DNA of 64,000 nucleotides from the NCBI RefSeq assembly GCF_058153355.1, contig NZ_CM177019.1. One strand, 5' to 3'. Position numbers and translations under genes: made by a program. Within the stretch, counting starts at the first letter, position 1; the number at the start of each line of letters is the position of its first letter. The notes under the pieces are model-generated. The model did no database searches. It had not been told where the DNA came from and worked only from the letters and a program-made list of their open reading frames with translations. Of this stretch, positions 481 to 41,045 are shown piece by piece.

Positions 481-2064
481 ATGAATTTAACCCTCAAAGA
501 ATCGCTTGTTACCCGTAGCCGGGTATTTAGCCCGTGGACTGCGTTCTACTTTTTACAGTCGCTATTAATTAACCTCGGCTTAGGTTACCCCTTCAGTTTG
601 CTATACACCGCCGCATTTACGGCTATTTTGCTTTTGCTATGGCGAACATTGCCTCGCGTACAAAAAGTTCTGCTCGGTGTCAGTTCACTGATCGCCGCTT
701 GTTATTTCCCTTTTGCACAGGCCTACGGCGCGCCTAACTTCAATACCTTGCTGGCATTGCATTCCACCAATATGGAAGAGTCGACCGAAATCCTGACGAT
801 TTTTCCGTGGTACAGCTACCTGGTCGGCTTATTTATTTTTGCGCTCGGCGTAATAGCAATCAGGCGGAAAAAAGAGAGCGAAAAAGCGCGCTGGAATACC
901 TTCGACAGCCTGTGTCTGGTATTCAGTGTGGCGACATTTTTTGTTGCTCCCATGCAAAACCTGGCCTGGGGCGGCGTATTTAAACTGAAAGATACTGGCT
1001 ATCCGGTATTTCGTTTTGCTAAGGATGTCATCGTCAATAATAACGAGGTGATCGAAGAGCAAGAACGGATGGCAAAACTTTCCGGAATGAAAGATACCTG
1101 GACGGTCACTGCCGTTAAGCCGAAATATCAGACCTATGTGGTGGTGATCGGTGAAAGCGCGCGTCGCGATGCCCTCGGTGCCTTTGGCGGTCACTGGGAC
1201 AATACCCCGTTTGCCAGCAGTGTTAACGGTTTGCTTTTTGCTGACTACATTGCCGCCAGTGGCTCCACGCAGAAATCGCTTGGCTTAACGCTCAATCGCG
1301 TAGTCGATGGCAAACCACAGTTTCAGGATAACTTTGTCACCCTGGCAAATCGCGCGGGCTTCCAGACCTGGTGGTTTTCCAACCAGGGCCAAATCGGCGA
1401 ATACGATACCGCCATCGCCAGCATCGCCAAACGTGCAGATGAAGTGTACTTCCTGAAAGAAGGTAATTTTGAAGCAGATAAAAACACGAAAGACGAAGCG
1501 TTACTGGATATGACCGCTCAAGTGCTGGCACAAGAGCACTCGCAACCACAGCTGATTGTTTTACATCTGATGGGCTCACATCCGCAGGCCTGCGACCGGA
1601 CACAAGGCAAATACGAAACCTTTGTGCAATCGAAAGAAACGTCGTGCTATCTCTATACCATGACGCAAACGGACGATTTACTGCGCAAGCTGTACGATCA
1701 GTTACGCAACAGCGGCAGCAGCTTCTCGCTGGTTTACTTTTCTGACCACGGTCTGGCCTTTAAAGAGCGCGGCAAAGACGTGCAATACCTTGCCCATGAT
1801 GATAAGTATCAGCAAAATTTCCAGGTACCTTTTATGGTCATTTCCAGCGACGATAAAGCGCATCGGGTGATTAAAGCCCGCCGCTCAGCCAATGACTTTT
1901 TAGGCTTTTTCTCGCAGTGGACGGGAATTAAAGCGAAGGAAATTAACATCAAATACCCGTTTATATCTGAGAAGAAAGCCGGGCCGATATACATCACCAA
2001 CTTCCAGTTACAGAAGGTAGATTACAACCATCTCGGAACCGATATTTTCGACCCGAAACCTTAA
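481..2064 (+). CDS. opgE: phosphoethanolamine transferase OpgE (YbiP), 527 aa
   Basis: Long ORF with N-terminal multi-pass membrane region and sulfatase-like domain; position between mntS and ompX matches the K-12 map. Confidence 0.9.
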   Translation: MNLTLKESLVTRSRVFSPWTAFYFLQSLLINLGLGYPFSLLYTAAFTAILLLLWRTLPRVQKVLLGVSSLIAACYFPFAQAYGAPNFNTLLALHSTNMEESTEILTIFPWYSYLVGLFIFALGVIAIRRKKESEKARWNTFDSLCLVFSVATFFVAPMQNLAWGGVFKLKDTGYPVFRFAKDVIVNNNEVIEEQERMAKLSGMKDTWTVTAVKPKYQTYVVVIGESARRDALGAFGGHWDNTPFASSVNGLLFADYIAASGSTQKSLGLTLNRVVDGKPQFQDNFVTLANRAGFQTWWFSNQGQIGEYDTAIASIAKRADEVYFLKEGNFEADKNTKDEALLDMTAQVLAQEHSQPQLIVLHLMGSHPQACDRTQGKYETFVQSKETSCYLYTMTQTDDLLRKLYDQLRNSGSSFSLVYFSDHGLAFKERGKDVQYLAHDDKYQQNFQVPFMVISSDDKAHRVIKARRSANDFLGFFSQWTGIKAKEINIKYPFISEKKAGPIYITNFQLQKVDYNHLGTDIFDPKP

Positions 2065-2071
2065 AAACAAA

Positions 2072-2098
2072 AATCCGCCCCGAGAGGCGGATTTTTTA
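2072..2098. terminator. bidirectional rho-independent terminator between convergent opgE and ompX
   Basis: Hairpin AATCCGCCcCGAGAGGCGGATT flanked by A-run and T-run. Confidence 0.7.
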
Positions 2099-2112
2099 TA
2101 TCACCGAAGTGA

Positions 2113-2628
2113 TTAGAAGCGGTAACCAACACCGGCAATCCAGGTGCCTACGTCAACGCTACGAATACGGCTCTGCTCGTAAGAGAAGTCCAGAGCAACG
2201 TTTTCCATCGGGTTGAACTGCAGACCAGCACCGTAGGAGAAACCGTAGTCGCTGGTGTCGTGTTTGTAGGTCGGGTATTCAGTGGTCTGGAATTTACCGT
2301 AACCCACACCCACTACACCGTAGATGCTTGCCCAGTCGTTAATGCGGTAAGCCGGACCAGCAGTGATGCCGTAGTACTGGTTTTTGTTGTAGTCACCAGA
2401 GCTTGCAGTACGGCTTTTCTCGGTGTAAGTGAAAGAACCGATCACACCCAGCGGGCTGTTGTCTTCTTCATAGCGGTATTTCAGGTTGAAACCGCCCATT
2501 TTGTTCATTTGGCCCTGAGCGTCGCTCTGTGCGTAACCGCCAGTTACGGTAGAAGTCGCAGCTACGGAAGTAGCTGCGGTGAAAGCCAGAACTGCAGCCA
2601 GTGCTGAAAGACATGCAATTTTTTTCAT
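2113..2628 (-). CDS. ompX: outer membrane protein OmpX (171 aa)
   Basis: Translation MKKIACLSALAAVLAFTA...VGYRF recognised as OmpX; start taken at the third Met of the 173-aa ORF. Confidence 0.95.
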   Translation of the reverse strand: MKKIACLSALAAVLAFTAATSVAATSTVTGGYAQSDAQGQMNKMGGFNLKYRYEEDNSPLGVIGSFTYTEKSRTASSGDYNKNQYYGITAGPAYRINDWASIYGVVGVGYGKFQTTEYPTYKHDTSDYGFSYGAGLQFNPMENVALDFSYEQSRIRSVDVGTWIAGVGYRF

Positions 2629-2980
2629 AACCACCTCAAATGTGATTCAAATAAGTCCTAAGTTTTAAATATATCAAAAATTAATGGGAAACTCTTCGCG
2701 ATTTGTGATGTCTAACGGGCCATTTCATGTAACAGAACGTTTCCATACGCCGCTATCCATCTAAATTTAAATCACTTTTTCAGAGAACTGCATAAGTATT
2801 ACGCATGTTTTCCCTGTCATTCATCCAGATTATTCCTAATCACCAGACTAATGATTCCATCAATCCTGGCGCATTTTAGTCAAAACGGGGGAAAATTTTT
2901 TCAACAAATGCTCAACCAGCATTGGGTATATCCAGTACACTCCACGCTTTACTTAGGTTTAGATATTTGTGGGAGAAAGG

Positions 2981-3868
2981 ATGCCTGGTTCATTACGTAA
3001 AATGCCGGTCTGGTTACCAATAGTCATATTGCTCGTTGCCATGGCGTCTATTCAGGGTGGAGCCTCGTTAGCTAAGTCACTTTTTCCTCTGGTGGGTGCA
3101 CCGGGTGTCACTGCGCTGCGTCTGGCATTAGGAACGCTGATCCTCATCGCGTTCTTTAAGCCATGGCGACTGCGCTTTGCCAAAGAGCAACGATTACCGC
3201 TGTTGTTTTACGGCGTTTCGCTGGGTGGGATGAATTATCTTTTTTATCTTTCTATTCAAACGGTCCCACTGGGTATTGCGGTGGCGCTTGAGTTCACCGG
3301 ACCACTGGCGGTGGCGCTGTTCTCTTCTCGTCGCCCGGTAGATTTCGTCTGGGTTGTGCTGGCGGTTCTTGGTCTATGGTTCCTGCTACCGCTGGGGCAA
3401 GACGTTTCCCATGTCGATTTAACCGGCTGTGCGCTGGCACTGGGAGCAGGGGCTTGTTGGGCTATTTACATTTTAAGTGGGCAACGCGCAGGAGCGGAAC
3501 ATGGCCCTGCGACGGTGGCAATTGGTTCGTTGATTGCAGCGTTAATTTTCGTGCCAATTGGAGCGCTTCAGGCTGGTGAAGCACTCTGGCACTGGTCGGT
3601 TATTCCATTAGGTCTGGCTGTCGCTATTCTCTCGACCGCTCTGCCTTATTCGCTGGAAATGATTGCCCTCACCCGTTTGCCAACGCGGACATTTGGTACG
3701 CTGATGAGCATGGAACCGGCGCTGGCTGCCGTTTCCGGGATGATTTTCCTCGGAGAAACATTGACACCCATACAGCTGCTGGCGCTCGGCGCTATCATCG
3801 CCGCTTCAATGGGTTCTACGCTGACAGTACGCAAAGAGAGCAAAATAAAAGAATTAGACATTAATTAA
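2981..3868 (+). CDS. rhtA: threonine/homoserine exporter RhtA (DMT/EamA family)
   Basis: 10-TM EamA-type protein in the conserved position; start placed at MPGSLRK inside the 299-aa ORF. Confidence 0.85.
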   Translation: MPGSLRKMPVWLPIVILLVAMASIQGGASLAKSLFPLVGAPGVTALRLALGTLILIAFFKPWRLRFAKEQRLPLLFYGVSLGGMNYLFYLSIQTVPLGIAVALEFTGPLAVALFSSRRPVDFVWVVLAVLGLWFLLPLGQDVSHVDLTGCALALGAGACWAIYILSGQRAGAEHGPATVAIGSLIAALIFVPIGALQAGEALWHWSVIPLGLAVAILSTALPYSLEMIALTRLPTRTFGTLMSMEPALAAVSGMIFLGETLTPIQLLALGAIIAASMGSTLTVRKESKIKELDIN

Positions 3869-3877
3869 ATTTACATT

Positions 3878-3906
3878 TCTGCATGGTTATGCATAACCAT
3901 GCAGAA
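3878..3906. terminator. perfect palindrome hairpin downstream of rhtA
   Basis: CTGCATGGTTATGCATAACCATGCAG inverted repeat immediately after the rhtA stop codon. Confidence 0.6.
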
Positions 3907-4080
3907 TTTCTCGCTACTTTTCCTCCACACCGTCTTTATATATCGAATTATGCAAAAGCATATTTATTCCGAAAATTCCTGGCGAGCCAATAAATAAGAA
4001 TTGTTCTTATCAATATATCTAACTCATTGAATTTTTATTAGTTTTGTTTTTCACGCTTGTTACCACTATTAGTGTGATAG

Positions 4081-4671
<591 letters not shown>

Positions 4672-4711
4672 ATCCATCGCTGATGGTGCAGAAATTTAGT
4701 AAACGATAACA

Positions 4712-4740
4712 GCGGCTTCCTGACAGGAGGCCGTTTTGTT
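4712..4740 (+). terminator. dps rho-independent terminator
   Basis: Hairpin CGGCTTCCTGacaGGAGGCCG followed by TTTTGTTTT. Confidence 0.6.
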
Positions 4741-4901
4741 TTGCAATCCGCCTCAACGCACTTATTTAGTGCATCCATCCGCTGTCCACGACCATCAAAG
4801 TAAATTTTTTGTATCCACATCATCACACAATCGTTACATAAAGATTGTTTTTTCATCAGGTTTTACGCTAAATAATCACTGTGTTGAGTGCACAATTTTA
4901 G

Positions 4902-5022
4902 CGCACCAGTTTGGTGCCCCAGAATGGTGCATCTTCAGGGTATTGCCCTATAAATCGTGCATTACGTTTTTGCCGCATCTCGATAAATCAATGAGTTGCA
5001 AAACTGGCACGATTTTTTCATA
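4902..5022 (+). promoter_or_regulatory. glnHPQ nitrogen-regulated promoter region (NtrC sites plus sigma-54 promoter)
   Basis: GCACCAGTTTGGTGC and AATGGTGCATC at 4902-4932 resemble NtrC half-sites; TGGCACGATTTTTTCAT at 5005-5021 resembles a -24/-12 sigma-54 promoter about 50 bp upstream of glnH. Confidence 0.5.
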
Positions 5023-5057
5023 TGTGAATGTCACGCAGGGGATCGTCCCGTGGATAG

Positions 5058-5819
<762 letters not shown>

Positions 5820-5834
5820 TAATGCTACGCCTGT

Positions 5835-5910
5835 AAAGCGCACTGGCAGTTCCCTCTCCCCTCTGGGGAGAGGATTAGGGTGAGGGGCGCAAACCCGCTC
5901 CGGGGCCATT
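5835..5910. repeat. intergenic GC-rich stem-loop between glnH and glnP
   Basis: Inverted repeat CCTCTCCCCTCTGGGGAGAGG plus flanking palindromic sequence in the glnH-glnP spacer. Confidence 0.4.
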
Positions 5911-5957
5911 AATTACCCTGAATTTGATTATTTACACCACGGTAACAGGAACAACAT

Positions 5958-6617
5958 ATGCAGTTTGACTGGAGTGCCATCTGGCCTGCCATTCCGCTTC
6001 TGATTGAAGGTGCCAAAATGACCCTGTGGATTTCGGTCCTCGGTCTGGCTGGCGGCCTGGTGATCGGATTGCTGGCAGGTTTTGCACGCACCTTCGGTGG
6101 TTGGATATCCAACCACGTCGCGCTGGTCTTTATTGAAGTGATCCGCGGCACACCTATCGTCGTCCAGGTGATGTTTATCTACTTCGCCCTGCCGATGGCG
6201 TTTAACGACTTACGCATCGACCCATTTACTGCGGCGGTGGTCACCATCATGATCAACTCCGGCGCATACATTGCGGAAATCACGCGTGGTGCGGTGCTGT
6301 CTATCCACAAAGGTTTCCGTGAAGCAGGACTGGCTCTCGGCCTTTCACGTTGGGAAACCATTCGCTACGTCATTTTACCGCTGGCACTGCGTCGTATGCT
6401 GCCGCCGCTGGGTAACCAGTGGATCATCAGCATTAAAGACACCTCGCTGTTTATTGTTATCGGCGTGGCGGAACTGACCCGTCAGGGGCAAGAAATTATT
6501 GCCGGTAACTTCCGCGCCCTTGAGATCTGGAGCGCCGTGGCGGTGTTCTATCTGATTATTACCCTGGTGCTGAGCTTTATTCTGCGTCGTCTGGAAAGAA
6601 GGATGAAAATCCTGTGA
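5958..6617 (+). CDS. glnP: glutamine ABC transporter permease GlnP
   Basis: 219-aa polar amino-acid ABC permease; overlaps the glnQ start by 4 nt. Confidence 0.95.
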
Positions 6618-7336
6618 TTGAATTTAAAAACGTCTCCAAGCATTTTGGTCCAACCCAGGTGCTGCACAATATCGATTTGAACATTGCTCAGGGCGAAGTC
6701 GTGGTGATTATCGGGCCGTCCGGTTCCGGTAAATCGACTCTGCTGCGCTGCATCAACAAACTGGAAGAAATCACTTCCGGCGATCTGATTGTCGATGGCC
6801 TGAAGGTTAACGATCCGAAAGTTGACGAGCGCCTGATTCGCCAGGAAGCGGGTATGGTGTTCCAGCAGTTTTACCTCTTCCCGCATCTGACGGCGCTGGA
6901 AAACGTCATGTTTGGCCCGCTACGTGTACGTGGCGCGAACAAAGAAGACGCTGAAAAACTGGCGCGTGAACTGCTGGCGAAAGTCGGTCTGGCAGAACGT
7001 GCACATCACTACCCTTCCGAACTTTCTGGTGGTCAGCAGCAGCGTGTGGCGATTGCCCGCGCGCTGGCGGTGAAGCCGAAAATGATGCTATTTGATGAAC
7101 CAACTTCCGCTCTTGACCCGGAACTGCGCCATGAAGTGCTGAAGGTTATGCAGGATCTGGCTGAAGAAGGCATGACGATGGTGATCGTGACCCACGAAAT
7201 CGGTTTTGCCGAGAAAGTCGCTTCGCGTCTTATCTTCATTGATAAAGGCCGAATTGCAGAAGATGGCGATCCGCAGGCGTTGATCAAGAACCCGCCGAGC
7301 CAGCGCTTGCAGGAATTTTTGCAGCACGTCTCTTAA
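6614..7336 (+). CDS. glnQ: glutamine ABC transporter ATP-binding protein GlnQ
   Basis: Walker [10 protein letters not shown], signature LSGGQQQR and Walker [13 protein letters not shown] present. Confidence 0.95.
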
Positions 7337-7425
7337 CTTCTCAGCCTCCCTTTCCCCCGAAAGGGAGGCACACCAGATTCCTCTCATTTAAAATCGCCCC
7401 TCCCCCAGCATCTATACTTATCTTT

Positions 7426-9678
7426 TTGCTCTGTTTTCTCACTGGAGGAGTCATGCGGTGGATCCTGTTCATCCTCTTCTGCCTGCTGGGCGCACCTGCC
7501 CACGCGGTATCCATACCCGGCGTTACAACCACAACGACAACGGACTCAACGACTGAACCGGCCCCGGAACCGGATATCGAACAAAAAAAAGCGGCCTATG
7601 GCGCACTGGCGGATGTGCTGGATAATGACACCTCGCGTAAAGAGTTGATCGACCAGTTGCGCACCGTCGCCGCTACGCCTCCTGCGGAACCCGTACCGAA
7701 GATCGTGCCGCCGACGCTGGTTGAAGAGCAAACCGTGCTGCAAAAGGTCACCGAAGTCAGCCGCCATTATGGTGAAGCCCTTTCCGCCCGCTTCGGACAA
7801 CTTTATCGCAATATCACCGGCTCCCCGCATAAGCCGTTTAATCCACAAACCTTCAGCAATGCGTTGACCCATTTTTCAATGTTAGCGGTATTAGTGTTTG
7901 GTTTTTACTGGCTGATTCGCCTGTGCGCACTTCCGCTGTATCGCAAAATGGGCCAGTGGGCGCGGCAAAAAAATCGTGAGCGCAGTAACTGGTTGCAGCT
8001 TCCGGCGATGATTATCGGGGCGTTTATTATCGACCTGCTGTTACTGGCACTGACATTATTTGTCGGCCAGGTCTTAAGCGACAACCTGAATGCGGGCAGT
8101 CGCACCATCGCTTTCCAACAAAGTTTGTTTCTCAACGCCTTTGCCCTGATTGAATTTTTCAAAGCCGTACTACGCCTGATTTTTTGCCCCAACGTGGCGG
8201 AGCTGCGCCCGTTCACGATTCAGGACGAAAGCGCCCGTTACTGGAGTCGTCGCCTGAGCTGGTTAAGCAGCCTGATTGGGTATGGTCTGATTGTGGCTGT
8301 GCCGATTATCTCTAATCAGGTGAATGTGCAAATCGGTGCGCTAGCGAACGTCATCATTATGCTGTGCATGACGGTCTGGGCGTTGTACCTGATCTTTCGT
8401 AATAAAAAAGAGATTACCCAGCATTTGCTCAACTTCGCGGAACACTCGCTGGCCTTTTTCAGCCTGTTTATTCGCGCTTTTGCGCTGGTGTGGCACTGGT
8501 TGGCAAGCGCCTATTTTATCGTGCTGTTTTTCTTTTCGTTGTTCGATCCGGGCAACAGCCTGAAATTTATGATGGGTGCAACGGTACGCAGCCTGGCGAT
8601 TATTGGTATCGCCGCGTTTGTTTCCGGTATGTTTTCCCGCTGGCTGGCGAAAACCATCACTCTCTCGCCACATACTCAGCGTAATTATCCGGAACTGCAA
8701 AAACGGCTGAACGGCTGGCTTTCGGCGGCACTGAAAACGGCGCGTATTCTTACCGTCTGCGTGGCGGTGATGTTGCTGTTGAGCGCATGGGGATTGTTCG
8801 ATTTTTGGAACTGGCTGCAAAACGGCGCGGGGCAGAAAACCGTAGATATCCTGATCCGTATCGCACTCATCCTTTTCTTCTCGGCGGTTGGCTGGACGGT
8901 GCTTGCCAGTTTGATCGAAAACCGACTGGCTTCGGATATTCATGGCCGCCCGCTACCGAGCGCCCGCACGCGTACTCTGCTGACGCTGTTTCGCAACGCG
9001 CTGGCGGTGATTATCAGTACCATCACCATCATGATTGTCTTGTCAGAAATCGGCGTCAATATCGCGCCATTGCTGGCAGGTGCCGGGGCATTAGGGCTGG
9101 CTATCTCGTTTGGTTCGCAAACGCTGGTGAAAGATATCATCACCGGCGTGTTTATACAGTTTGAAAACGGCATGAATACCGGTGATTTGGTGACTATCGG
9201 GCCGTTGACCGGCACTGTGGAACGGATGTCAATTCGATCGGTGGGCGTGCGTCAGGATACCGGGGCGTATCACATCATTCCGTGGTCTTCGATTACCACC
9301 TTTGCTAACTTTGTCCGCGGTATTGGTTCGGTAGTGGCAAATTATGATGTTGATCGCCATGAAGATGCTGATAAAGCCAATCAGGCACTGAAAGATGCGG
9401 TAGCGGAATTGATGGCAAACGAAGAAATTCGCGGGTTGATTATCGGTGAACCGAACTTTGCCGGGATTGTCGGCTTAAGCAATACCGCATTTACACTGCG
9501 AGTTTCGTTCACTACGCTGCCACTCAAACAGTGGACGGTACGCTTTGCCCTCGACAGCCAGGTGAAAAAACATTTCGACCTGGCGGGCGTTCGCGCGCCA
9601 GTGCAGACTTATCAGGTGCTGCCTGCTCCGGGCGCGACCCCGGCTGAACCGTTGCCGCCGGGGGAACCAACGCTTTAA
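7426..9678 (+). CDS. ybiO: MscS-family mechanosensitive channel YbiO
   Basis: Signal peptide, multi-TM region and C-terminal MscS domain; the true start may be the internal Met at 7453. Confidence 0.85.
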
Positions 9679-10601
9679 CGCTGGCGATTGACAAAACGGC
9701 GGCGCTGCTCGTCGTTCATAAAGGTCCAGGCAATAAAGCGACTCTGCTTTTGCCCCTGGGCCATCTCTTTTTTAACCACTTTCACCGCGCCCACGTCCGT
9801 CAGAGCACGATACAACGGCGGTAAGTTTTCGCCACGAGATACCAGCGAGGTAAACCACATCACCTGCTTCGCGAAGCCTTTGCTCTCTTCAATCATCTTT
9901 TTGATAAAAGCCACTTCACCGCCTTCACACCACAGCTCCTGTTGCTGACCACCAAAGTTCAGTGCATCGTCTTTGTTCAGCCCCAGGTTACGCCGTTTAC
10001 GCTCACTACCCGCCCGTGCCGCAGCGGCGGAATCGTGGAATGGCGGGTTACACAAGGTCGCGTCGTATTGCTCGTTTTTGTGGATAATACCGTTAAAAAT
10101 CGCCCCGCTCTCTTTCTGCCGACGCAGACGAATGGCGCGGTTAAGCCCCGGATTAGCACTGATGATCGCCTGCGCACTGCTTAACGCCTGGCTGCTGGTG
10201 TCACTACCGGTAAAACGCCAGCCATATTCATGTACGCCAATCAGCGGATAAATACAGTTCGCACCAACGCCGATATCCAGAATGCTGGCATTAGCTGGAA
10301 TTGTTCCGCTTGCTTCAGCCAGTAAATCGGCAAGGTGATGAATATAATCCGCCCGGCCCGGTACTGGCGGGCAGAGAAAACCGTCCGGGATATCCCAGTT
10401 CGCTACGGCGTAAAAATGGGCCAGCAACGCCTTATTGAGCGCCTTCACCGCCAGCGGATTGGCAAAGTCTACGCTTTGCTCCCCGGCAGGTGTAAGCGTG
10501 AGGAATTGCCTGAGTTCAGAATTGACCTGACAAAGCGTGGCAAGATCGTAGCGGCTGTGATGACGGTTGCGCGGATGCAACCCCGGTTTCTGGGCGGACA
10601 T
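9675..10601 (-). CDS. rlmF: 23S rRNA m6A1618 methyltransferase RlmF
   Basis: SAM-dependent methyltransferase in the conserved position; start set at [10 protein letters not shown] inside the 335-aa ORF. Confidence 0.85.
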
Positions 10602-10876
10602 AGCATTCTCCTTTAAGCAGCGGCGTAAGATACCCGCATAACGCGACAGGGTAAATATCTGGCTGCGTTTATCATTCCCCAAAACCTTAACATGGCTATG
10701 GTTTACGGCAATTCATCATAAAAATCAGCATCATGCATGTCATTGATTTGTCTTATTTTGTAAAAATATATCGTTCAAAAAACAAGCACATCTCTGTCAA
10801 TTTTTTGCGTCATTTTCATCGTCCAGGCGACCTACACTTATCAGGCACTACCCGTTGTATTTATGAGGATGTCATT

Positions 10877-11137
10877 ATGAAAAAGTGCCTCACACTACTG
10901 ATTGCCACCGTCCTGAGCGGAATCTCTCTCACGGCTTATGCCGCGCAACCGATGAGTAACCTGGACAGCGGTCAGCTACGGCCCGCCGGTACCGTTTCGG
11001 CAACTGGCGCATCAAACCTAAGCGATCTGGAGGATAAACTGGCAGAAAAAGCGCGCGAACAAGGCGCGAAAGGTTATGTCATTAATTCCGCGGGCGGAAA
11101 TGACCAGATGTTCGGTACTGCAACCATCTACAAATAA
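10877..11137 (+). CDS. mcbA: DUF1471 (YdgH/BhsA/McbA family) periplasmic protein McbA
   Basis: 86-aa product with signal peptide and conserved C-terminal GYVINSAGG...TATIYK motif; start set at MKKCLTLL inside the 134-aa ORF. Confidence 0.8.
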   Translation: MKKCLTLLIATVLSGISLTAYAAQPMSNLDSGQLRPAGTVSATGASNLSDLEDKLAEKAREQGAKGYVINSAGGNDQMFGTATIYK

Positions 11138-11272
11138 CCCCACCAACGTAACTGCATTCGCCTCTGGATGCAGTTTTCGCCTGTTTTGTAATCAAAAAAC
11201 ATCAAATATGAACGCAATGTAAATAAATGTATTTCTTTTTCGCGCAATGGGTGATAGAAAATCGCGCCAAGT

Positions 11273-11297
11273 GATAATGCTTATCAAAATTATTATC
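11273..11297 (+). promoter_or_regulatory. Fur box in the fiu promoter
   Basis: GATAATGCTTATCAAAATTATTATC resembles the GATAATGATAATCATTATC Fur consensus about 100 bp upstream of fiu. Confidence 0.6.
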
Positions 11298-11707
11298 ACT
11301 TGCACGAACGCTATCACGGGATTAACAGTGGCATCGCATCCGCAGAGAGGCTTTCTCGTGACAGTGAAAATTTCAACATATAAGAAAAAGTTACCTGCAA
11401 AATGGAAAACAATCGCAATTTCCCTGCCAGACAATTTCATTCGCTCACGTTCTTTGCCGGTCTTTGTATTGGCATCACGCCTGTGGCACAGGCACTCGCT
11501 GCCGAAGGGCAAGCTAACGCGGATGACACGCTGGTTGTCGAAGCATCAACGCCTTCGCTTTACGCGCCACAACAATCTGCCGATCCGAAATTCTCGCGTC
11601 CGGTAGCAGATACTACCCGCACGATGACGGTGATTTCTGAACAAGTGATTAAAGATCAGGGTGCAACCAACCTTACCGATGCGCTCAAAAACGTCGGCAC
11701 ATTGCCG

Positions 11708-13133
11708 TAATGCCGATCAGTTAAGGATCAGTTGACCGATCCAGTGGCTGTGTAAGAATCCGGAAACGCTCACTTGTTTCCGGATTTTTTTATGCACATT
11801 GGACAGGCTCTTGATCTGGTATCCCGTTACGATTCTCTGCGTAACCCACTGACTTCTCTGGGGGATTACCTCGACCCCGAACTCATCTCTCGTTGCCTTG
11901 CCGAATCAGGTACTGTAACGCTACGCAAGCGCCGTCTTCCCCTCGAAATGATGGTCTGGTGTATTGTTGGCATGGCGCTTGAGCGTAAAGAACCTCTTCA
12001 CCAGATTGTGAATCGCCTGGACATCATGCTGCCGGGCAATCGCCCCTTCGTTGCCCCCAGTGCCGTTATTCAGGCCCGCCAGCGCCTGGGAAGTGAGGCT
12101 GTCCGCCGCGTGTTCACGAAAACAGCGCAGCTCTGGCATAACGCCACGCCGCATCCGCACTGGTGCGGCCTGACCCTGCTGGCCATCGATGGTGTGTTCT
12201 GGCGCACACCGGATACACCAGAGAACGATGCAGCCTTCCCCCGCCAGACACATGCCGGGAACCCGGCGCTCTACCCGCAGGTCAAAATGGTCTGCCAGAT
12301 GGAACTGACCAGCCATCTGCTGACGGCTGCAGCCTTCGGCACGATGAAGAACAGCGAAAATGAGCTTGCTGAGCAACTTATAGAACAAACCGGCGATAAC
12401 ACTCTGACGTTAATGGATAAAGGTTATTACTCACTGGGACTGTTAAATGCCTGGAGCCTGGCGGGAGAACACCGCCACTGGATGATACCTCTCAGAAAGG
12501 GAGCGCAATATGAAGAGATCAGAAAACTGGGTAAAGGCGATCATCTGGTGAAGCTGAAAACCAGCCCGCAGGCACGAAAAAAGTGGCCGGGACTGGGAAA
12601 TGAAGTGACAGCCCGCCTGCTGACCGTGACGCGCAAAGGAAAAGTCTGCCATCTGCTGACGTCGATGACGGACGCCATGCGCTTCCCCGGAGGAGAAATG
12701 GCGGATCTGTACAGTCATCGCTGGGAAATCGAACTGGGATACAGGGAGATAAAACAGACGATGCAACTGAGCAGGCTGACGCTGAGAAGTAAAAAGCCGG
12801 AGCTTGTGGAGCAAGAGCTGTGGGGTGTCTTACTGGCTTATAATCTGGTGAGATATCAGATGATTAAAATGGCGGAACATCTGAAAGGTTACTGGCCGAA
12901 TCAACTGAGTTTCTCAGAATCATGCGGAATGGTGATGAGAATGCTGATGACATTGCAGGGCGCTTCACCGGGACGTATACCGGAGCTGATGCGCGATCTT
13001 GCAAGTATGGGACAACTTGTGAAATTACCGACAAGAAGGGAAAGGGCCTTCCCGAGAGTGGTAAAGGAGAGGCCCTGGAAATACCCCACAGCCCCGAAAA
13101 AGAGCCAGTCAGTTGCTTAACTGACTGGCATTA
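11708..13133 (+). mobile_element. insertion sequence IS4 (1426 bp)
   Basis: Imperfect terminal inverted repeats TAATGCCGATCAGTTAAG and CTTAACTGACTGGCATTA bound a single transposase ORF; the length equals the canonical IS4 length. Confidence 0.9.
11792..13120 (+). CDS. insG: IS4 transposase InsG (442 aa)
   Basis: Translation [27 protein letters not shown]... recognised as IS4 transposase (DDE family). Confidence 0.9.
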
Positions 13134-15149
13134 CCCCGGCGTGGGTGCGTTTTTTGCTGGTGAGAACGGTAACTCCACCACTGGCGACGCCATTTATATG
13201 CGCGGTGCCGATACTTCTAACAGTATTTATATTGATGGGATTCGCGATATCGGCAGCGTCTCGCGCGACACTTTCAATACAGAGCAGGTCGAAGTAATTA
13301 AAGGGCCGTCCGGCACCGACTACGGGCGCAGCGCGCCGACGGGCTCGATCAATATGATCAGCAAGCAGCCGCGCAATGATTCAGGCATTGACGCTTCCGC
13401 CAGTATTGGCAGCGCCTGGTTCCGCCGCGGCACGCTGGACGTCAATCAGGTCATTGGTGATACCACCGCGGTGCGCCTGAATGTGATGGGTGAAAAAACG
13501 CACGATGCCGGACGCGACAAAGTTAAAAATGAGCGTTACGGCGTCGCCCCTTCTGTCGCTTTTGGCCTTGGCACAGCGAATCGTTTGTATCTTAATTATC
13601 TGCATGTCACCCAGCACAACACGCCAGACGGCGGCATTCCGACCATCGGTTTGCCGGGCTATTCTGCCCCATCGGCGGGAACGGCGGCCCTGAATCATTC
13701 CGGAAAAGTTGATACGCATAACTTTTACGGCACGGATTCCGATTACGACGATTCGACCACCGACACCGCTACCATGCGTTTTGAGCACGACATCAACGAT
13801 AACACCACCATTCGCAACACTACCCGTTGGTCGCGCGTGAAGCAGGATTACCTGATGACGGCGATTATGGGCGGGGCGTCGAATATTACCCAGCCCACCA
13901 GCGATGTGAATAGCTGGACCTGGTCACGCACGGCGAATACCAAGGATGTGAGTAATAAAATTCTCACCAACCAGACCAACCTGACCTCGACGTTCTATAC
14001 CGGTTCTATCGGTCATGATGTCAGTACTGGCGTGGAATTTACCCGTGAAACGCAGACTAACTATGGCGTTAATCCGGTGACGTTACCTGCGGTGAATATT
14101 TATCATCCTGACAGCAGCATTCATCCTGGCGGCCTGACGCGTAACGGCGCAAACGCCAATGGTCAGACGGATACCTTCGCAATTTATGCCTTCGATACGC
14201 TGCAAATCACCCGTGATTTTGAGCTGAACGGCGGGATCCGTCTGGATAATTATCATACTGAATATGACAGTGCCACCGCCTGCGGCGGCAGTGGCCGAGG
14301 TGCCGTTACCTGCCCAGCTGGCGTGGCGAAAGGTTCTCCGGTCACCACTGTTGACACCGCCAAGTCTGGCAATCTGGTGAACTGGAAAGCCGGGGCGCTG
14401 TATCACCTGACGGAAAACGGCAATGTCTATATTAACTATGCCGTTTCCCAGCAGCCTCCGGGCGGCAACAACTTCGCCCTTGCGCAGTCTGGCAGCGGTA
14501 ACAGTGCCAACCGCACCGATTTTAAACCGCAAAAAGCCAACACCAGCGAGATTGGCACCAAATGGCAGGTTCTGGATAAACGCCTGTTGCTCACCGCCGC
14601 GCTGTTCCGTACTGATATCGAAAATGAAGTTGAGCAAAATGACGACGGGACTTACTCGCAATACGGTAAGAAACGCGTCGAAGGCTATGAGATATCCGTG
14701 GCCGGGAATATCACTCCCGCGTGGCAGGTGATTGGCGGCTATACCCAGCAAAAAGCAACCATCAAAAACGGCAAAGATGTTGCCCAGGATGGTTCTTCAT
14801 CGCTGCCGTATACCCCGGAGCACGCCTTTACCTTATGGAGCCAGTATCAGGCAACCGATGATATTTCCGTTGGTGCGGGCGCACGCTATATCGGCAGTAT
14901 GCATAAAGGTTCTGACGGCGCGGTGGGAACGCCAGCGTTTACCGAAGGTTATTGGGTCGCCGACGCTAAACTGGGGTATCGGGTTAATCGCAATCTCGAC
15001 TTCCAGCTAAACGTCTACAACCTGTTTGATACCGATTACGTCGCCTCAATCAACAAGAGCGGCTACCGTTATCACCCAGGTGAACCAAGAACGTTCCTGC
15101 TTACCGCCAATATGCATTTCTGATTCAGATGTGGGGCGCAGGGCTCACT

Positions 15150-39911: not shown

Positions 39912-40901
39912 TTAGCCGCCAATGTACGATAAGTTTTGCGTAATACCGGTGTTGTTTTGATGCAGGAAATGGGTCTGTTTCTTCTCCCGCAGCGCCGCTG
40001 AAATACGCGCTTCCAGCGCCTGTTGCTGGGTATCGTCTTCCAGCAGATCGCGCAGGTTAACGCCGCCTTCACCGAACAGGCAGAGATGGAGTTTACCAAT
40101 GGAGGAGACGCGCAGGCGGTTGCAAGTGGCGCAGAAGTCTTTTTCATACGGCATGATAAGGCCAATCTCTCCGGCGTAATCCGGATGACAAAAGACTTGC
40201 GCGGGACCGTCGCTGCGTTGACGTAATTGGTGGATCCAGCCGCGACGCAGTAACTCGTCACGCAGAACCTGACCAGAGATGTGATGCTTACGGAAGAGCT
40301 CGCTGCCCTCGCCCGTTTCCATCAGTTCGATGAAACGCAGCTGGATGGGGCGATGCTGGATCCAGTTCAGAAAGGTGTCGAGTTGGTGATGATTAACATC
40401 ACGCATCAGCACGGTATTGACTTTGACCTTCTCAAAACCGGCCTCAAATGCAGCATCGATCCCTGCCATGACCTGATTGAATTTATCCTGTCCGGTAATA
40501 GCATGAAACTGGCGAGCGTCGAGGCTATCGACACTCACGTTGATACCAGTAAGACCAGCATCACGCCAGTTCGCTACATCTCGTTCCAGACGGTAACCAT
40601 TGGTGGTGACCGCAATCTGGCGGATAGCGTCGTTTTCTCGCACAGCGGCGATGATATCGGTAAAGTCGCGACGCAAAGACGGCTCTCCGCCCGTCAGACG
40701 GACTTTTTCGGTGCCCAGACTGGCGAAGGCGCGCGTAACCCGGCGAATTTCATCGACGGTCAGAAAGCCTTTATTGGTGACGCCGCTCGGTTTGTAGCCA
40801 TCCGGCAGGCAGTAGGTGCAACGGAAGTTGCACACATCGGTAATCGACAGGCGCAAGTAGTAAAACTTACGCGCAAATGCATCAGTCAGTTGTGAAGCCA
40901 T
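39912..40901 (-). CDS. moaA: GTP 3',8-cyclase MoaA (radical SAM), 329 aa
   Basis: CNFRCTYC radical-SAM motif near the N-terminus; start set at [22 protein letters not shown] inside the 356-aa ORF. Confidence 0.95.
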
Positions 40902-41045
40902 GTACACCTTTCCAGATACGGGAGGCGAAATCATTTCTTCCTTCGCCCTGGTGGCAATCTTTGTAAGCATTGTCACGGCCAAAGCACCGTATCAGTTGAC
41001 CCAGGTGCAGAGGCTAGAGTGTTTAGTGGTTAAGCCGATACTAGC
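40902..41045 (-). promoter_or_regulatory. moaA 5' leader; expected position of the molybdenum-cofactor (Moco) riboswitch
   Basis: Established knowledge that the E. coli moaABCDE leader carries a Moco riboswitch; the structure was not verified here. Confidence 0.45.

Follow-up and report, generated by a model that had tools for sequence, protein, structure and literature searches.

How does an insertion sequence come to lie within a gene between two target repeats that are not copies of each other? This question is raised by fiu in a 64,000-nt stretch of contig NZ_CM177019.1 (RefSeq assembly GCF_058153355.1; the whole stretch analysed here is referred to as the window), where a complete copy of the insertion sequence IS4 interrupts the gene. 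Fiu is a TonB-dependent catecholate siderophore receptor and an entry route for catechol-substituted β-lactams and some microcins. IS4, the founding member of the IS4 family and of its IS4 subgroup, is a 1426-bp element with target duplications of 11-13 bp. We find the right junction of this insertion to be normal, and the left junction to be a hybrid that follows fiu as far as AAAAACGT, then carries the 13-bp duplication of a different IS4 site, between aroA and ycaL, and only then enters IS4.

Structure of the interrupted fiu gene

The interrupted gene sits between mcbA and ybiX, the order usual for E. coli, in agreement with the RefSeq annotation of matching loci; this synteny, together with orthology and the Plug and 22-strand barrel domains, identifies it as fiu (Table 1). 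It is no longer an intact gene, with 13 bp and IS4 interposed after codon 98. The break falls inside the Plug domain, of which Pfam positions 2-32 correspond to residues 68-98 of the 5′ fragment and positions 33-106 lie in the 3′ fragment, the latter also matching TonB_dep_Rec_b-barrel (2.4e-55). A 102-aa open reading frame (ORF) at the left junction comprises the 98 Fiu codons, four foreign codons (GTLP) and a TAA stop from the IS4 end. An earlier reading of this locus, here called the original prediction, had placed IS4 after codon 102 and the truncation before the plug domain, and is to be amended on both counts. When the 13 bp and IS4 are excised, the 760-codon fiu ORF is regenerated without loss of any fiu sequence, and the reconstructed protein differs at two amino acids from the annotated Fiu of strain 2013C-4282 (WP_000429997.1). 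Since the reconstructed gene is an intact ORF, the insertion and the junction events appear to be recent.

The element itself is a regular IS4. Bounded by TAATGCCGATCAG at the left and CTGACTGGCATTA at the right, it shows the length of ~1426 bp and the imperfect 18-bp terminal repeats beginning TAATGCC (agreeing at 16/18 positions) that characterize IS4, and 1-6 nt separate it from the 13 other IS4 copies with which it was compared. It is the only copy in the window. Its one DDE transposase matches Nterm_IS4 (PF13006, 3e-33) and DDE_Tnp_1 (PF01609, 9e-32), and the exact protein is found in 6926 blocks of a public gene collection. Length, ends and Pfam domains thus agree with the original prediction of a full-length 1426-bp element with an intact 442-aa transposase disrupting fiu. 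Near the left end, a terminator-like hairpin followed by U7 folds at -17.5 kcal/mol (z = -5.9), with an equally good fold in none of 200 shuffles. While the copy resembles known IS4 in length, ends, transposase domains and its near-identical sequence, its flanking repeats are not mutual copies: CGGCACATTGCCG at the left faces CCCCGGCGTGGG at the right, so that the direct target duplication of 11-13 bp is lacking, the left repeat coming from another IS4 site. The element is still IS4; the altered part is the junction. We also noted a 733-aa ORF (12922-15123, plus strand) that begins within IS4 and continues in frame past its right inverted repeat from codon 99 of fiu onwards; a signal peptide is lacking, and the ORF is probably without meaning.

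To delimit the junctions, the 148 bp left of IS4 were compared by BLAST with 5426 complete E. coli genomes, the set to which all counts of complete genomes below refer. A fiu match was obtained in 5421 of them and always ended at 11695, the 12 bases that follow (11696-11707, GGCACATTGCCG) being non-fiu. To the right of IS4, fiu resumes at 13134 with CCCCGGCGTGGGTGCG and reads on as CCCCGGCGTGGGTGCGTTTTTT. Relative to an intact fiu (AAAAACGTCCCCGGCGTGGGTGCGTTTTTT), the window carries 13 bp (CGGCACATTGCCG) plus IS4 between T293 and C294, with no base deleted. The 13-bp sequence occurs once only in the window. Beyond it, fiu, mcbA, rlmF and ybiO are collinear and in their usual order, and the flank remains collinear with the fiu upstream region over 10.3 kb; aroA or ycaL sequence is absent from the window, and the whole flank has therefore not been exchanged. 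Alignment of the flanks to the intact gene and to a normal fiu::IS4 allele bears out the original prediction that a matched duplication is missing. That prediction had named two findings that would overturn it, and neither is seen in the available data: mis-registration of a normal duplication is excluded by the alignment, and a second fiu is absent from the window. Nearly every E. coli genome searched by BLAST has one copy of the gene.

Table 1 Positions in the window of the features of the fiu locus and of other elements (IRL and IRR, left and right inverted repeat)
Feature	Position	Strand	Remarks
fiu promoter region, sigma-70-like site	11251-11300	+	Promoter-like match 11251-11278; overlaps GATAAT/ATTATC hexamer repeats
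fiu 5′ fragment	11402-11695	+	Codons 1-98: signal peptide, TonB-box region, Plug start
Left target arm, 8 bp (AAAACGTC)	11688-11695	+	Common to the IS4 targets in fiu and at aroA-ycaL; proposed joint by microhomology
Foreign 13 bp (CGGCACATTGCCG)	11695-11707	+	aroA terminator hairpin; first C ambiguous with fiu
IS4, complete	11708-13133	+	1426 bp; IRL 11708-11725, IRR 13116-13133
Terminator-like hairpin and U7	11756-11794	+	In IS4 left end, just 5′ of transposase ATG; RNA fold
IS4 transposase gene	11792-13120	+	442 aa from ATG; RefSeq: 448 aa from TTG at 11774
fiu copy of target duplication (CCCCGGCGTGGG)	13134-13145	+	Normal; same as right junctions of fiu::IS4 in M160133 (L001) and GN02350 (L017)
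fiu 3′ fragment	13134-15123	+	Last base of codon 98 to stop; Plug remainder and β-barrel
ybiX	15336-16013	+	PKHD-type hydroxylase; Pfam 2OG-FeII_Oxy_3, PKHD_C; synteny with M160133 (L001) and the intact fiu locus (L002)
670-aa protein, SopA-like C-terminal domain	21757-23769	-	Matching E. coli loci: type III effector or EspX2
Molybdenum cofactor riboswitch	40889-41033	-	Rfam RF01055, 101.5 bits
Group II intron	56583-58889	-	Rfam: domains 1-4 58742-58889, 3′ catalytic end 56583-56659

Origin of the foreign 13 bp

A query consisting of the IS4 right inverted repeat and GGCACATTGCCG located the source, returning IS4 copies between aroA and ycaL. In E. coli SMS-3-5 this site reads tatcAAAACGT-CGGCACATTGCCG-IS4-CGGCACATTGCCG-GCGTTTTTTTT, and a further locus (L018) shows the same arrangement. 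With a single CGGCACATTGCCG, the empty site is the normal aroA terminator hairpin; a reconstructed 292-bp empty site was matched at 100% by one genome and covered over 80% or more of its length by 5261 genomes. The left junction of the occupied site was found in 107 complete genomes. Compared with aroA-ycaL::IS4 as in SMS-3-5, the left junction in the window (AAAACGT-CGGCACATTGCCG-TAATGCC) is identical over 20 bp plus IS4. Unlike the window, the aroA-ycaL insertion has aroA upstream and the same 13 bp again at its right end.

The two sites are also alike just outside the duplication, where an 8-bp left target arm, AAAACGTC, is common to both and falls exactly at the point at which the sequence switches from fiu to aroA. 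When the left arms of 11 other IS4 sites were compared with that of fiu, aroA alone shared at least 7 nt and the other 10 shared at most 2 nt. A 13/13 match to the duplication of another IS4 site can hardly be ascribed to chance in any reasonable way. That the left duplication had been altered by point mutation was considered as well and rejected: most positions differ, the length is changed, and all 13 bases are those of another IS4 site (~4^-13 per site by chance).

Two left junctions with 20 bp and a whole IS4 in common could conceivably be confused in assembly or polishing, reads of an aroA::IS4 junction being mis-placed on fiu::IS4. We regard such an artefact as scarcely credible, for it is contradicted by independent data. 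A contig of the Logan collection (SRR8656992; L014) is 99.99% identical to window positions 1401-11717 (~10.3 kb), junction included. Logan assemblies are de Bruijn graphs with k = 31 from which k-mers seen only once have been discarded (PMC12424806). Since this graph holds the junction, the reads must contain 31-mers that join fiu-specific bases to the aroA hairpin. Moreover, two samples have the 102-aa ORF that crosses the junction. The hybrid junction is real and no artefact.

The same contig offers a hint about the rest of its genome. It ends exactly 30 nt (k-1) past the fifth A, which is the last base specific to fiu. A stop at this place would be expected if the next 31-mer (AAAACGTCGGCACATTGCCGTAATGCCGATC) had a second predecessor, which would be a left IS4 junction of the aroA type. 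From this contig end alone, a second locus with AAAACGTCGGCACATTGCCG followed by IS4, i.e. an intact aroA left junction, would seem to exist in the same genome. Outside this material the hybrid was not encountered: it is present in 0 of the 5426 complete genomes, and an exact search for the junction gave no match in GTDB species representatives or in JGI metagenome contigs. A gapped pattern covering any fiu::IS4 left junction likewise gave no match in metagenomes, probably as short-read contigs break at IS copies.

IS4 at its target sites and a possible route to the hybrid junction

Insertion of IS4 into fiu is not peculiar to the window. An IS4 at the same position and in the same orientation is found in 45 of the complete genomes (e.g. 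M160133, GN02350 and 14EC007), and the alleles examined carry matched duplications, the hybrid junction being seen in none. In M160133 the 12-bp sequence CCCCGGCGTGGG stands on both sides, whereas GN02350 has a 13-bp duplication and 14EC007 one of 12 bp with an extra G. To judge by these differences, IS4 entered this position independently at least twice, or else 14EC007 contains a homopolymer sequencing error. The flanks of the complete-genome alleles diverge by ~3% from the window, and the insertion in the window is therefore a further, separate event.

Why this position is struck repeatedly is suggested by what other targets look like. Most empty targets, when reconstructed, prove to be short hairpins between an A-run and a T-run and resemble bidirectional terminators; the duplications are mostly perfect 11-14-bp hairpins that usually lie 3′ of genes (adhE, eno, rpoD, degS, aroA and others). 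As the duplication copies the target hairpin, a hairpin with an outward-facing T-run is kept at each end of the element. Such targets fit a published account of the IS4 subgroup, in which the conservation of target arms is called "spectacular" (PMC2266710). The fiu target, AAAAACGT-CCCCGGCGTGGG-TGCGTTTTTT, is of this kind, with A5 and T6 arms around a palindrome and a folding energy of -13.1 kcal/mol; 8 of 11 other sites also fold strongly, the remaining three (L010-L012) being weak at -4 to -7 kcal/mol. The fiu site is a terminator-like IS4 hot spot within a coding region that has been hit recurrently.

To see how IS4 flanks behave in general, 23 further copies with both ends present were examined. 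Duplications were perfect in 20, measuring 11-13 bp by automatic count (one or two were 14 bp when parsed by hand), which is of the order that the original prediction had expected. In the other three (L021, L022 and L025) no matched duplication was found, and the whole flank had been exchanged. L022 and L025, both ENA metagenome contigs, are the reciprocal recombination products of the IS4 copies downstream of adhE and at the raiA/bamD site, while L021 combines the right flank of another site (L029) with an unrelated left flank. Homologous recombination of the ordinary kind, in which one IS4 copy recombines with another to give an inversion, deletion or translocation, is the usual cause of unmatched duplications and accounts for these three cases. 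As an explanation of the window it is highly improbable, being contradicted by a difference that is confined to 12-13 bp, beyond which the normal fiu-upstream genes extend leftwards for 10.3 kb; it would, besides, call for another crossover inside 8 bp and so amount to the reading set out below. The window has unmatched repeats in common with the whole-flank recombinants but exchanges the duplication only, and its junction structure is a class distinct from theirs. The post-insertion rearrangement proposed by the original prediction was in this respect the right kind of idea, although it had been left unspecified; the event can now be narrowed to a left flank carrying the 13-bp duplication of the aroA-ycaL site.

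Our favoured reading, held with moderate confidence, is that IS4 inserted normally into fiu and that its left duplication was subsequently rewritten by repair templated on a resident aroA copy. What the sequences show is the structure, where the 13 bp come from, the collinear flank and a real junction; the succession of steps, the break and the route of repair are what we infer here. IS4 would first have transposed in the usual manner into the terminator-like hot spot, of which the canonical right junction would be the surviving record. A break or a stalled fork at the left end would then have been repaired, the body of IS4 serving as a long homology anchor; a transposase cut at the left inverted repeat could have come first, or else the template could have been switched at the hairpin. 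Synthesis could have run out of the ectopic aroA copy through its 13-bp duplication, and the joint could have been closed within the shared 8-bp AAAACGTC. The net outcome would be a very short, non-reciprocal conversion that affects the left duplication alone. That only the duplication was swapped is likely due to the strict target preference of IS4, by which every duplication is bordered by the same few bases.

This route has a relative in homology-facilitated illegitimate recombination, or in synthesis-dependent repair with a microhomology joint, which was reportedly described by de Vries and Wackernagel in 2002 and is known mainly from natural transformation. The term is in current use (PMC6382021). 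Both have a long anchor on one side and a joint of a few base pairs (3-12 bp) on the other, here 1426 bp of IS4 and the 8 bp of AAAACGTC. The case in the window differs in being intragenomic, in replacing 12 bp by 13 bp without a large insertion or deletion, and in a microhomology that would be supplied by IS4's own target preference.

Several observations weigh against templated repair. A normal fiu::IS4 ancestor was not found in the lineage, the nearest complete genomes carrying an intact fiu, and an aroA-ycaL copy in the source genome is suggested by a contig end alone. Eight base pairs are far below the homology that RecA recombination normally requires, and a microhomology or template-switch step must therefore be assumed. 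A conversion tract is not visible, as IS4 copies differ by too few single-nucleotide polymorphisms. Finally, it is a single case, with no other in the complete E. coli genomes, the GTDB representatives or the JGI metagenomes.

The missing ancestor would be readily accommodated if the hybrid had arisen in one step, with IS4 bringing the donor duplication along on its non-transferred strand. In this scenario the 5′ strand still attached to the donor (aroA duplication plus AAAACGT) would anneal to the left arm of fiu and be ligated in place of gap filling, giving a heteroduplex of 12/13 nt from which the next replication would segregate one normal and one hybrid junction. A single event would yield both the canonical right junction and the donor-type left duplication, the switch would lie exactly at the duplication boundary, and aroA, occupied in 107 genomes, is a common location from which IS4 could have come. 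We nevertheless consider a one-step origin unlikely. To our knowledge, the chemistry of IS4 itself has not been studied directly. Transposases of the IS4 family carry the YREK motif, however, and the studied members IS10 and IS50 free both strands via a hairpin, which leaves no donor flap (PMC2266710, together with general knowledge). In addition, none of the 20 other intact insertions carries a donor-type duplication, and the contig end suggests that the left junction at aroA still has its IS4, in which case cut-and-paste transposition would require repair from the sister chromosome. Sequence alone cannot separate templated repair from such a carry-over.

A third possibility invokes a false end 13 bp outside the left inverted repeat at the aroA site, so that IS4 moved as a 1439-bp unit. 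The extra 13 bp are indeed contiguous with the inverted repeat in the window, as they are at aroA. Yet a fiu duplication would then be expected on both sides, whereas the left copy is missing and only 0-1 bp is duplicated, and the 13 bp contain no IS4 terminal sequence. We deem this origin very unlikely.

Consequences of the insertion and their bearing

Fiu function would be lost through this insertion, the 5′ product being truncated in the plug and the remainder lacking both promoter and signal peptide. Fiu is under the control of Fur. The GATAAT/ATTATC repeats in the promoter region look like a Fur box, although a search with the 19-bp consensus allowing up to 3 mismatches gave no match. Transcripts that start at the fiu promoter should be stopped by the hairpin and U7 in the left end of IS4, and a terminator-like fiu hairpin with its T-run remains at the right junction. 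Because of the strong terminator-like hairpin and U-run in the left end, polarity on the downstream gene ybiX is plausible, and its expression is probably reduced. The phenotypes anticipated by the original prediction would ensue from what has been published on Fiu. The spacer between fiu and ybiX (15124-15335) measures 212 bp and holds palindromes resembling repetitive extragenic palindromes (REP) or bacterial interspersed mosaic elements (GCCTGATGCGCT...TTATCAGGCC, GGCCGGATAAGGCGTTCACGCCGCATCC), compared with 41 bp in E. coli M160133 (L001 6824-6864). The longer spacer looks like an extra repeat-element insertion, and co-transcription of ybiX may also be affected by it.

Elsewhere, the window shows further features of its own. 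Best matches among the complete genomes to positions 13134-24000 reach 96.7-98.4% identity, and the exact YbiX allele was found in two public contigs only; the window comes from a rarely sampled Escherichia/Shigella lineage. For the exact 670-aa SopA-like product, a look-up returned no gene on record. The molybdenum cofactor riboswitch is of the kind expected upstream of the moa operon. The group II intron contains an ORF (56664-58406) for a 580-aa protein with reverse transcriptase, maturase and HNH parts, and is flanked by a pectinesterase-family gene (55236-56519) and an aconitase-family gene (59111-61396), with a REP-like naRNA4 match at 58947-59017.

A fiu::IS4 knockout is in itself an already common allele type. 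The codon-98 site has been hit repeatedly: it is occupied in 45 of the 5426 complete genomes, where two or more lengths of duplication occur, and again in the lineage of the window, which makes it a predictable loss-of-function allele worth noting in resistance genotyping. A literature search gave nothing specific on IS4 in fiu, on IS4 at aroA/ycaL or on IS4 at terminators. What is unusual is the swap of a duplication alone between two IS4 sites, of which no second example was met among the 23 copies, the complete genomes or the literature searched. Unmatched duplications need not mean a large rearrangement, and annotation rules that use matched repeats can mislead. If the one-step origin were true, IS4 would differ from IS10 and IS50 in failing to free its 5′ strand where the element ends, and the donor copy could be read from mismatched duplications as from a natural barcode. 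The hybrid junction also provides a testable handle on how the ends of IS4 are cut and repaired.

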